DNA of 64,000 nucleotides, taken from the NCBI GenBank assembly GCA_965203445.1, contig OZ241883.1, positions 416,001 to 480,000 on the forward strand, written 5' to 3'. Shown piece after piece: positions 14,236 through 20,475 of the stretch. Made by a program: the position numbers and the translations under genes. This DNA is from Candidatus Oxydemutator sp. (GTDB taxonomy: Bacteria > Pseudomonadota > Gammaproteobacteria > Poriferisulfidales > Oxydemutatoraceae). Position 1 is the first letter of the stretch. Each line of letters begins with the position of its first letter. The notes under the pieces are model-generated. The model was not told the DNA's origin and ran no database searches. It worked only from the letters and a program-made list of their open reading frames with translations.

Positions 14236-15000
14236 ATGCGCAAACGTTTCGGACAGCATTTCCTGCGCGACCAGGCGGTCGTCGCGCGCATCATGGAGAG
14301 CGTCGCGCCGGCGCCCGGCGACAACCTGATCGAAATCGGCCCCGGCCGAGGCGCGTTGACGCGGCCTTTGCTCGAGCGCGCCCGGCGGCTCGCGGTGATC
14401 GAGATAGACCGCGACCTTGCGCGCGGCCTCGAGGCGTGGAGCGCGCCCGGCGGGCGCCTGCGCGTGCATTGCGAAGACGCGCTGCAATTCGACTTCGCGC
14501 GCGCCGGCGGCGCCCTCAGGGTCGTCGGCAATCTTCCCTACAACGTATCCACGCCGCTGCTGTTTCGGCTGGTGCGCTTCCACGAGCAGGTCCGCGACCT
14601 GCACTTCATGTTGCAGCGCGAAGTGGTCGCGCGGCTGGCGGCGCGCCCGGGCGACGCCGCCTATTCGCGGCTCAGCGTCGTCAGTGCCTGCTGTTTCGAC
14701 GTGCGCCCGTTGTTCGACGTGCCGCCCGGGGCGTTCGCGCCTAGGCCCGCGGTCGTGTCCAGTTTCGTGCGCCTGCTGCCGAAACCCGCGCCGCCGCCCG
14801 CCGTCCGGGAACGCCTCGATTCGCTGGTCAAACTGGCGTTTTCACGGCGTCGCAAAACCGTCGCCAACGCACTGGCGACGCTGTTTGACCGGGAGGCGTT
14901 GGAGCGGCTTGGGATAAATCCGGGCCAGCGCCCGGAAACCCTGCGTGTTGACCAGTTTATGAAAATGTTGGGAACTATATACAAAAATGCACCATCGTAA
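14236..15000 (+). CDS. rsmA: 16S rRNA dimethyltransferase; last codons supplied by the inserted element
   Basis: KRFGQHFL, EIGPGRG, NLPYNVS, MLQREV. Confidence 0.96.
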   Translation: MRKRFGQHFLRDQAVVARIMESVAPAPGDNLIEIGPGRGALTRPLLERARRLAVIEIDRDLARGLEAWSAPGGRLRVHCEDALQFDFARAGGALRVVGNLPYNVSTPLLFRLVRFHEQVRDLHFMLQREVVARLAARPGDAAYSRLSVVSACCFDVRPLFDVPPGAFAPRPAVVSSFVRLLPKPAPPPAVRERLDSLVKLAFSRRRKTVANALATLFDREALERLGINPGQRPETLRVDQFMKMLGTIYKNAPS

Positions 15001-16296
15001 TGGTGATCAATGTATAGTGTGCCGTCTTGACGAGTTTATGAAAGTTTATCGAACAATCCGATACAGGTTACATGCCGGCACGCAGGCCAAAGCCCGCAAG
15101 TTGGCGGGCACGGCAGGGGCGTGCCGTTATGTGTGGAACCATTTCGTGGGGAAGTTGCGGGATGAGTATGCCGAGGAAGGCGAGTGCGATTACCGGTTTT
15201 ATTCGCTTGGTAAGCGGTTCACGGCTTTGCGAAGGGATGGCGATACGTGGTTGCAGGAGTATTCCATGCCGATAGTGCGCCAGGCATTGAAACCGATAGA
15301 AACCGCATATCGGCGGTTCTCTAAGAAGGAAGGAGGCCTGCCACGTTTCCATGCCAAGTATGTCCGCCCGGATAGCTTCCCGTTATGTGCCGGTGCATTC
15401 CGTATGCGTGGGCGCTACCTGTACATCGCCGAGATAGGCGAGGTGCTACTGCTTGGCCACAACCCATACCCGGATGGCGTGCCAAAGTCCGGCACGGTCA
15501 AGCGGGAATGCGGCAAGTGGTATGCGTATATCACATACGAAGTGGAGCAGACCGAAGTGTCGAAAGCAGAGTACTCTGTAGGAATAGATCGAAACGTCGG
15601 CCAGGTAACGTTGTCCGACGGGACGATGTATCGTATCCCGGATACGGCAAGGCCTGAGCGGCGCGTCAGGCGTTATCAGAGGATGATGGCGAGGCGTCAG
15701 GGGCCGAACCGCAAGAAGGGGATCAAGGCGTCGAACCGATGGCTACGCGCACAGTTGCTACACCAGAGGGCGCAGGCCACGTTGCGCCACGCCAGACGGA
15801 ATTGGTGCCATGGCGTATCGAGGGAAGTGGCCGACGGGTATTCTCTTGTCCATCTGGAGAAGTTGAACATCAAAGGAATGTCAGCCGGTGCCAAGGGCAC
15901 CAAAGAGAATCCAGGCAGGAACGTCCGGGCGAAGGCAGGCTTGAATCGAGTGATACTCGCCACCTGCTGGGGCAAGTTCCATCAGTGCCTGGATTACAAG
16001 ACGAATACGAACTACGTGAATCCCGCATACACAAGCCAGACGTGCAATGAGTGCGGGCATGTAGATAAGAACGGTAGAAGGTCGCAATCAGTATTTATTT
16101 GTACCGCCTGCGGTCATCGGGACAATGTGGACTGGAATTCTGCCCTTTGTATAAAGGGCAGAGGAGACGCCGCGATGAGTATGAAGGCCTCCGGGAATGG
16201 GGCTGCTGGACGTGGAGGATACGGGGTTAGCCGGCCCGTGAAGCGTCAAATTGATACAGAACGCCACCCGGTGGTGCATTTTTGTATATAATTCCC
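14970..16296 (+). mobile_element. tnpB-only element with 25-bp TIRs and 8-bp TSD
   Basis: TIRs GGGAA(C/T)TATATACAAAAATGCACCA at 14970-14994 and 16272-16296 (24/25 match); AAAATGTT at 14962-14969 and 16297-16304. Confidence 0.9.
15038..16291 (+). CDS. tnpB: RNA-guided endonuclease TnpB family
   Basis: HTH_OrfB N-terminus (GACRYVWN), RuvC-I GIDRN, RuvC-II LEKL, TSQTCNECG..CTACG Zn finger, RuvC-III DNVDWNSA; ORF opens at 14987. Confidence 0.93.
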   Translation: MKVYRTIRYRLHAGTQAKARKLAGTAGACRYVWNHFVGKLRDEYAEEGECDYRFYSLGKRFTALRRDGDTWLQEYSMPIVRQALKPIETAYRRFSKKEGGLPRFHAKYVRPDSFPLCAGAFRMRGRYLYIAEIGEVLLLGHNPYPDGVPKSGTVKRECGKWYAYITYEVEQTEVSKAEYSVGIDRNVGQVTLSDGTMYRIPDTARPERRVRRYQRMMARRQGPNRKKGIKASNRWLRAQLLHQRAQATLRHARRNWCHGVSREVADGYSLVHLEKLNIKGMSAGAKGTKENPGRNVRAKAGLNRVILATCWGKFHQCLDYKTNTNYVNPAYTSQTCNECGHVDKNGRRSQSVFICTACGHRDNVDWNSALCIKGRGDAAMSMKASGNGAAGRGGYGVSRPVKRQIDTERHPVVHFCI

Positions 16297-16339
16297 AAAA
16301 TGTTAAACAATGACGGCGATCAACTCCGGGAGGTTTGAC

Positions 16340-16720
16340 ATGCCAGACAAACTCTACGACATCAACGTGAGCGTGGAAACGCAGTTCCTCGAGGAACAGT
16401 CCGATCTGCTCAAGGATCGCTACGTTTTCGCGTACACCATCACCATTCTGAACGAGGGCAAGGTTCCGGCGCAACTGATCTCCCGCCACTGGATCATCAC
16501 CGACTCGAACCAGAAAATTCAGGAGGTGTCCGGCGAGGGCGTCGTCGGCGAGCAGCCCTATCTGCGTCCCGGAGTGAGTTTCCGCTACACCAGCGGCGCG
16601 GTCCTGGAGACGCCGTTCGGCACGATGCGCGGCAGCTACCAGATGCTCGCCGAAGACGGCACCGAATTCGAGGCCGAGATCGAAGAGTTTCAGCTGACCG
16701 CGCCGCACACCCTGCACTGA
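16340..16720 (+). CDS. apaG: ApaG protein
   Basis: YVFAYTITI, LISRHWIITD, GEGVVGEQP, YTSG; RBS GGGAGG before ATG 16340. Confidence 0.96.
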   Translation: MPDKLYDINVSVETQFLEEQSDLLKDRYVFAYTITILNEGKVPAQLISRHWIITDSNQKIQEVSGEGVVGEQPYLRPGVSFRYTSGAVLETPFGTMRGSYQMLAEDGTEFEAEIEEFQLTAPHTLH

Positions 16721-20335: not shown

Positions 20336-20475
20336 TGGCCGTCTCGGTTTTGTTCGTGTGCTCGCGTAACCCCTGCCGTTCGGCGGCCGCGCACGGCGTG
20401 TGATGATCAGCCAATCCTTATTCCCTACTCGACCTGGTTTGTCACGTTGCGTATACAATTCCCAAGGGCTGGATT

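Follow-up and report, generated by a model that had tools for sequence, protein, structure and literature searches.

A non-autonomous IS1595-type element carrying an intact tnpB gene in the 3' end of rsmA of Candidatus Oxydemutator sp., and a candidate target-adjacent motif at its insertion sites

The stretch of DNA analysed here, referred to below as the window, comprises 64,000 nucleotides of contig OZ241883.1 (positions 416,001 to 480,000 of the forward strand, GenBank assembly GCA_965203445.1) from Candidatus Oxydemutator sp. Positions 14970-16296 of the window hold a 1327-bp element that is a non-autonomous member of an IS1595-family DDE group, carries an intact tnpB gene as cargo and lies in the 3' end of rsmA. 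Comparison with related loci indicates that it belongs to an old cassette lineage distributed over several phyla. Here we describe the element, its relatives and its transposase-bearing partners, together with an RNA structure at the 3' end of tnpB and a one-sided sequence preference at the insertion sites, both of which bear on what the encoded nuclease may do.

Sequence reading places the left end of the element, from position 14970, at GGGAACTATATACAAAAATGCACCATC and the right end, to position 16296 and given as its reverse complement, at GGGAATTATATACAAAAATGCACCACC. These terminal inverted repeats (TIRs) are identical at 24 of 25 positions over 25 bp, and at 25 of 27 once extended; the 8-mer AAAATGTT stands directly outside both ends. 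In a repeat search of 14700-16600 the TIR pair was the longest inverted repeat, called at 36 nt (89%) because the 8-mer is itself nearly palindromic. The 13-nt end motif GGGAATTATATAC occurs three times in the window at up to two mismatches (0.27 expected), a count reached in none of 100 shuffles. Three genomes of the same genus (G001, G002 and G003) match the flanks and are without the element; their rsmA-apaG junction reads ...GACCAGTTTATGAAAATGGTAAAC... and has one copy of the 8-mer, with G for T at its seventh base. This single copy at the empty sites identifies the 8-mer as a true target-site duplication. A 1327-bp element with 25-bp TIRs and an 8-bp duplication had been read from the letters alone in an earlier note on this DNA, and both the renewed reading and the empty sites confirm it.

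The sole long open reading frame (ORF) in the sense direction of the element covers 14987-16291. Homology to its paralogues, which begin at a homologous ATGAA(A/G), puts the start of tnpB at the ATG of position 15038 and gives a product of 417 aa, in which the Pfam domains HTH_OrfB_IS605, OrfB_IS605 (RuvC) and Cas12f1-like_TNB (zinc ribbon) are present. The NCBIfam model guided_TnpB (NF040570) is matched with 184.8 bits (cut-off 100), whereas the narrower models IS200_TnpB (129 bits, cut-off 425) and IS607_TnpB (83 bits, cut-off 350) remain under their cut-offs. ISDra2 TnpB is matched in the PDB across the whole length of the protein (E 7e-15), and the D/E/D residues of the RuvC domain align with those of solved TnpB-like chains. 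The stop codon (TAA, 16289-16291) falls within the right TIR. The earlier note's statements that TnpB is the only gene, that its RuvC acidic residues are intact and that its ORF enters the right TIR hold accordingly. A protein homology search returned 2513 relatives at E <=1e-20, of which the few named ones, in metagenome-assembled genomes (MAGs), are called only 'transposase'. The public gene call for the ORF at 15038-16291 is a product of 341 aa, or 82% of the 417-aa frame, in which the N-terminal helix-turn-helix domain is missed.

Twenty-three matches to the element were found in the complete 2.38-Mb genome, where 13 tnpB-only copies are full-length or nearly so and show 64-81% DNA identity to the window copy. 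Each of the 13 has the termini GGGAATTATATA...TATATAATTCCC, exactly or with one base changed. Their flanking 8-mers agree at 8/8 positions in eight copies and at 7/8 in two, the other three having 6/8, 6/8 and 4/8. The inner halves of the TIRs vary among sub-lineages and agree between the two ends of each copy. The genome also contains three miniature end pairs (C1:113341-113503, 757576-757755 and 247602-248387; 163, 180 and 786 bp, the first two without an intact duplication), which look like internal-deletion derivatives of such cassettes. In G006, a genome of the same family, some 15 short matches are restricted to the final 70-130 nt of the element (query 1768-1900); these may represent miniature elements reduced to the RNA and the right end.

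The breadth of the lineage was assessed with one genome per species, which gave 80 loci with TnpB at 35-58% identity. The loci come from MAGs labelled Gammaproteobacteria (Ca. Porisulfidus, Oxydemutatoraceae, Rariloculaceae), Thermodesulfobacteriota, Dadabacteria and others. Inverted ends of the form GG...CC could be placed on 58 of the 80, which with the 13 copies of the genome itself makes 71 elements, 38 with 8/8 and eight with 7/8 duplications. The end call for L093, one of these 58, was doubtful, and this element was excluded from later counts, which hence refer to 70 elements. Open frames of at least 380 aa are present in 66 of these. Among the 66 intact relatives the D/E/D residues are invariant, the four zinc-finger cysteines are kept in 65-66, and the tnpB stop lies within 30 nt of the element end in every case (4-30 nt inside it in 64, 1-3 nt past the called end in two). 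The unit of TIRs and tnpB is thus retained from 100% to 35% protein identity and across the phyla of the MAGs, and the surroundings of all 80 loci, out to 1.5 kb, are free of an IS1595 transposase. Because the ends are retained without a transposase nearby, the design of a cassette plus a separate partner is old and stable, not a one-off capture.

Such partners exist. One of them lies in the same genome at C1:1978350-1980965; it spans 2616 bp, shares the termini of the cassettes and is flanked by an 8-bp duplication of its own, ATCAGAAA. The 314-aa protein encoded there combines DDE_Tnp_IS1595 (1e-43) and Zn_ribbon_IS1595 domains, scores 205.9 bits with the NCBIfam model of the IS1595 family transposases (cut-off 75) and is the only match of the genome to PF12762 (Pfam DDE_Tnp_IS1595). 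The TIR of this resident partner agrees with those of sub-lineages L005, L006 and L014 at 24 of 26 positions and with that of the window copy, by direct count, at 20 of 26. The congener G001 has a 2538-bp element of the same design (L033:~272-2809, duplication CTTCTTTA) whose TIR is identical to that of the window copy at 25 of 26 positions. As the best-matching transposase is in a congener and not in this genome, the window copy may now be stranded. Four more TIR types are common to cassettes and transposase-bearing elements, with agreement at 22-26 of 26 positions, and plain IS1595 elements of 1.28-1.41 kb occur in relatives of the same family (e.g., eight copies in G004). Perfect 8-bp duplications flank all 15 transposase-bearing copies examined. 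On these alignments, the inner TIRs of different sub-lineages match different transposase-bearing IS1595 elements.

The earlier note had proposed a search for sibling copies and for an autonomous transposase with the same termini; the 13 tnpB-only elements, eight of them with perfect duplications, the resident IS1595-family DDE element and the G001 element supply both, and they support its idea of a non-autonomous DDE-type element with a captured TnpB. The window element has the 8-bp duplication of the IS1595 family and TIRs in common with transposase-bearing elements. It is without the Zn-ribbon and DDE_Tnp_IS1595 transposase of its own that marks a family member; tnpB being its sole gene, it is filed as a non-autonomous IS1595 derivative and not as an insertion sequence. 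A partial second transposase match in the genome (C1:512990-513433; 42% identity over residues 13-158, E 8e-31), the ends of which are not convincing, is probably a remnant. The two IS1595 partners in the genus, at C1:1978350-1980965 and in G001, also have a passenger gene, whose product joins an adenine DNA methyltransferase to a C-terminal HNH domain. The best NCBIfam matches of the latter are to the HNH domains of Cas9d and IscB (E 3e-13 and 5e-11), both under the cut-offs.

The 3' region of tnpB appears to encode a structured RNA. RNAalifold applied to 44 sequences of this region returned three helices with 13 pairs, seven of which show compensatory changes. Paired cells amounted to 98.7%; the figure was 81.7% in shuffles, none of 500 reaching the observed value, and 34-45% in controls with slid partners. 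Some of the changes alter residues on both sides of a pair, as in GGA CGU ... CGU CAA to GCA CGG ... CGU GAA. Downstream of these helices, in the last ~45 nt, a conserved GATAC pairs with GTATA of the TIR, and the 3' arm of the inner stem is the variable inner TIR. Folding of the last 60 nt gave a mean of -13.2 kcal/mol over the 70 elements; the left-end equivalent (mean -8.6 kcal/mol) was less stable in 62 of the 70 and the antisense strand (mean -10.3 kcal/mol) in 54. The stretch upstream of the TIR is self-complementary with the inner TIR in 68 of the 70 elements. When the inner TIR was paired with its own upstream arm and with those of other sub-lineages, its own arm was the best in 14 of 64 cases and in the best tenth in 26 of 64 (means -10.6 vs -8.2 kcal/mol), a moderate signal obtained with fixed cut points that split short hairpins. 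For the terminal 55 nt, aligned with MAFFT for 43 elements, RNAalifold returned no pairs because the stems sit at differing offsets, and the terminal hairpin was assessed by per-sequence folding in place of alignment folding. Rfam gave no match at E <=1. A pseudoknot between the loop GGGAAU (16194-16199) and the terminal AUUCCC was considered and is unsupported: the Rariloculaceae copies have an AAGUCCC end with a GGCGACA loop, and there is no covariation.

The sites at which the cassettes are inserted were compared in a motif logo of 45 non-redundant sites with duplications of at least 7/8, oriented by tnpB. All 45 have a purine (G in 27, A in 18) at position -1, immediately before the duplication. 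Position -2 is mostly T or G, with C in a single site; position -3 has A in 23 sites, and no duplication starts with G. Only position -1 is fixed, positions -5 to -2 carrying at most 0.35 bit each. The preference is one-sided, since the mirrored position downstream of the duplication fits in only 16 of the 45 sites. A replicate set from metagenome contigs has the purine in 7/7 sites. The 15 transposase-bearing partners have it in 10 or 6 of 15, depending on orientation (Fisher p 5e-4 and 3e-7). At the right junction of the occupied site, CCC of the TIR stands at positions -3 to -1 instead. Within the duplication, positions 2, 3, 6 and 7 are symmetrically AT-rich (T2/T7 and T3/T6 W-rich), which probably reflects the transposase. 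The one-sided purine looks like a target-adjacent motif (TAM). Stop codons were ruled out as the source of the purine, position -3 being mostly A and position -2 mostly T or G.

These observations can be joined into one mechanism. We infer that a cognate IS1595 transposase moves the cassette in trans. An omegaRNA would be transcribed from the tnpB 3' end through the right TIR into the flank, with the inner TIR as the 3' arm of its guide-proximal stem, and its guide would begin with the right copy of the duplication and continue into the flanking DNA. The purine-ending motif upstream of the 8-mer (about A-K-R) would be the TAM. TnpB would then cut sites that are unoccupied or from which the element has been precisely excised, with CCC of the TIR sparing the occupied junction, and repair templated by a sister copy that is still occupied would bring the element back, so that TnpB would act as a retention or homing module of a DDE element. 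The earlier note's suggestion that the omegaRNA would have to overlap the end of the ORF as well as the TIR, with a guide drawn from the flank, agrees with the covariation, the hairpin at the TIR and the one-sided motif. For the more specific proposal, namely that the tnpB 3' end and right TIR are the scaffold, the duplication and flank the guide, and the empty site the substrate of TnpB, we see about an even chance. The explanation as a whole, an IS1595-type non-autonomous tnpB cassette moved in trans whose TnpB may serve, with a TIR-overlapping omegaRNA, as a retention or homing module, is considered likely. Its fullest form is put forward more tentatively, as somewhat less than an even prospect: the 25-nt TIR would double as transposase-binding DNA end and omegaRNA stem, with the stem arm co-varying when the partner is switched, a purine TAM, protection by CCC, and TnpB as a homing device that co-evolved with a trans-mobilised DDE transposon across phyla.

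Several points weigh against these proposals. The information content of the flank motif is low (~1 bit at position -1 and ~0.3 bit at each of positions -2 and -3), and the motif is far weaker than known TnpB TAMs, in a logo that pools clades with different TAMs. The control set consists of just 15 transposase-bearing sites, of which five belong to a single element family of one genome. The RNA and site sequences are related to one another, and the structure was derived from the same alignment, by which the shuffle statistics overstate independence. The TIR of the resident partner fits the window element at only 20 of 26 positions, and mobility of this copy in its own genome is therefore conjectural. 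Furthermore, excision by a DDE transposase already leaves a double-strand break, so that the benefit of homing is less obvious than for IS605 elements, as section 6.2 of a 2026 review points out (PMC13565253).

Among the alternatives, it is unlikely, though far from negligible, that TnpB is mere cargo or has some other role and that the purine comes from the transposition machinery (e.g., an asymmetric transpososome formed through the extra internal TIR-like arm at the right end) or from the genomic context. The weakness of the motif, the small number of controls (n=15) and the partly symmetric, AT-rich site preference (T2/T7, T3/T6) that a transposase would be expected to have are all compatible with this, and some sites read ATGA or TGA and are possibly gene ends. 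However, the purine is present in 52/52 cassette sites as against 10/15 and 6/15 in partners with the same ends; A at -3 with T or G at -2 is unlike a stop codon; and the three flank positions avoid exactly the CCC of the occupied junction. Conservation of both the catalytic residues and the RNA structure likewise argues against inert cargo.

Two further readings concern the architecture of the element. As the usual contexts of TnpB are IS200/IS605 and IS607, and as small hairpins lie just within both TIRs of the window copy, an ordinary IS200/IS605-type tnpB element (IS1341 group) might have entered an unrelated miniature inverted-repeat transposable element (MITE), to which the TIRs and the duplication would belong. 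We regard this as extremely improbable. With the stop within 30 nt of the end in 66/66 intact relatives, there is no space for a separate right end, and nested IS605-type ends, a possibility that the earlier note had left open, were not found; the TIR-tnpB unit persists in several phyla, over a range of protein identity from 100% to 35%; the left end is not preceded by any fixed 4-5-nt target; and the Y1 transposase (Y1_Tnp, PF01797) has no match in the complete single-contig genome, in a search whose controls gave matches in 6 of 14 genomes. Alternatively, the variable stretch that separates the conserved CGTCAAATGGATAC motif from the TIR could itself be the guide, directing the nuclease to TIR-like DNA at the ends of the element or of a rival. 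This stretch does differ among sub-lineages while its surroundings are conserved, and in its 5' half it is similar to the left TIR in the same reading direction. Nevertheless, it pairs with the inner TIR in 68/70 elements, as expected of a stem and not of a free guide, its match to the left TIR is imperfect (~11/20 for L014), and it follows the scaffold without a TAM-like context; we hold out little hope for this reading.

TnpB inside DDE transposons with TIRs is a kind of association that has been known since 2023. Altae-Tran et al. 2023 (PNAS, PMC10691335) describe six TnpB branches (DDE-1 to DDE-6) tied to DDE transposases, all with inverted terminal repeats, as well as solo TnpBs with matching ends that are probably mobilised in trans. 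The window element resembles these in having tnpB between inverted repeats, its 3' end near the transposon end, and solo copies for which a trans-acting partner may be assumed. It differs from the DDE-1 to DDE-6 branches as described there, where TnpB occurs with a transposase, in that none was found within 1.5 kb at the 80 loci. The DDE families named are IS630 (PMC10691335) and ISL2, IS630 and IS1031 (PMC13565253, section 6.2). IS1595 is not mentioned in the main text of PMC10691335, the Additional Files 10 and 11 of which may list IS1595-type ends. Literature searches found nothing on point by title or abstract for TnpB with IS1595, nothing for TnpB with ISXO2, and only general reviews for Fanzor with Merlin.

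The IS1595 family, according to the summary of Siguier et al. 2009 in PMC8101967, produces 8-bp duplications, and the TIRs of its Merlin relatives start with GG. The window element is like this family in its 8-bp duplication and in its partners, which encode Zn-ribbon and DDE_Tnp_IS1595 domains, some with a passenger (methyltransferase-HNH). It is unlike an IS1595 insertion sequence in that it is without a transposase and has as cargo an RNA-guided nuclease, the RNA of which apparently employs the TIR as a stem. IS200/IS605 elements, as characterised in section 5.1 of PMC13565253, have neither TIRs nor duplications and insert beside a fixed 4-5-nt motif by means of a Y1 transposase. With the IS1341 group of these the window element shares tnpB as sole gene, membership in the same protein family (guided_TnpB) and a 3' end that overlaps a structured RNA region, but it has TIRs (25/27) and a duplication, no fixed target motif and no Y1 transposase in its genome. 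IS607 elements, the TnpA of which is a serine recombinase, are likewise without TIRs and duplications, both of which are present here. In eukaryotic DDE transposons with Fanzor1 (PMC13565253, section 6.2), short fixed duplications (TA, TTAA) place the 5' copy in the TAM and the 3' copy in the scaffold. A TnpB-type nuclease in a transposon with TIRs and a duplication, a scaffold reaching the right TIR and a TAM beside the left duplication would be common to both, the last two being proposals for the window element. Unlike the fixed duplications described for Fanzor1, the 8-bp duplication here is variable and hence would need to be part of the guide. The new point is the one-sided motif at the insertion sites, which is the one lead worth testing. 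The coordinates of all features are collected in Table 1.

Table 1. Features of the tnpB element and its surroundings (window coordinates)
Feature	Position	Strand	Basis
rsmA/ksgA, upstream flank gene	14236..15000	+	Pfam RrnaAD 1.6e-60
ATG, candidate TAM (family consensus A-K-R)	14959..14961	+	Site logo and replicates
Left copy of 8-bp target-site duplication, AAAATGTT	14962..14969	.	Single copy at the empty sites of three congeners
Left TIR (IRL), IS1595 type, starts GGG	14970..14996	+	25/27 identical to right end
Short untranslated tnpB leader with small hairpin CACCAT-CGTA-ATGGTG overlapping inner TIR	14997..15037	+	Sequence reading
tnpB, 417 aa, intact RuvC D-E-D and CCCC zinc finger	15038..16291	+	Pfam, NCBIfam, PDB, family conservation
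RNA helices in tnpB 3' end, candidate omegaRNA scaffold	16187..16247	+	16187-16191/16199-16203; 16209-16213/16243-16247; 16217-16219/16234-16236; covariation
Terminal hairpin with inner right TIR as 3' arm, candidate guide-proximal omegaRNA stem	16249..16293	+	Minimum free energy -13.5 kcal/mol, last 60 nt
Right TIR (IRR)	16270..16296	-	25/26 identical to TIR of G001 IS1595 element
Right copy of 8-bp target-site duplication, AAAATGTT	16297..16304	.	Repeat search and empty-site comparison
Candidate guide (duplication copy and flank), if omegaRNA reads out of right end	16297..16316	+	Inferred from TnpB biology and position of flank motif
apaG, downstream flank gene	16340..16720	+	Pfam ApaG domain 2e-36; start MPDKLYD homologous to MPTTKLYD of congeners

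The insertion swaps the last 11 codons of rsmA (VNYKGNETRRA in the congeners) for 10 (LGTIYKNAPS), the new end of the gene (14962-15000) being read from the duplication and the left TIR. The element is co-directional within the rsmA-apaG-apaH operon, so that expression of apaG must read through it or begin within it. Contigs from three DNA runs were placed on 14700-16600; both junctions are covered in X1 and X2, and none of the contigs joins 14969 to 16297. One long skip occurs in X2, from 14738 to 16418 (side 29); it does not correspond to the empty site and probably stems from another organism. A solo end motif, GGGAATTGTATAC, with one mismatch lies at 20451-20463 of the window on the reverse strand, with no partner end close by. 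Genome-wide the end motif has 133 matches at up to two mismatches, 25 of them exact, and many are solo or degraded.

The accepted role of TnpB is the restoration of IS605 and IS607 elements after their scarless excision. This role is not obviously transferable to DDE transposons, which duplicate their targets and leave breaks. Should the purine fail as a TAM, the element described here would be one more TnpB cassette in a DDE shell. The one-sided purine offers a prediction, open to assay, about the way in which guide and TAM are set where a duplication is both long and variable. The genome constitutes a compact natural test set, in which 13 diverged cassettes stand beside one resident partner, with cognate partners present in relatives. 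If the proposed mechanism is true, it would explain how an RNA-guided nuclease can serve a cut-and-paste element, and the lineage would represent a compact nuclease family with a very permissive TAM.

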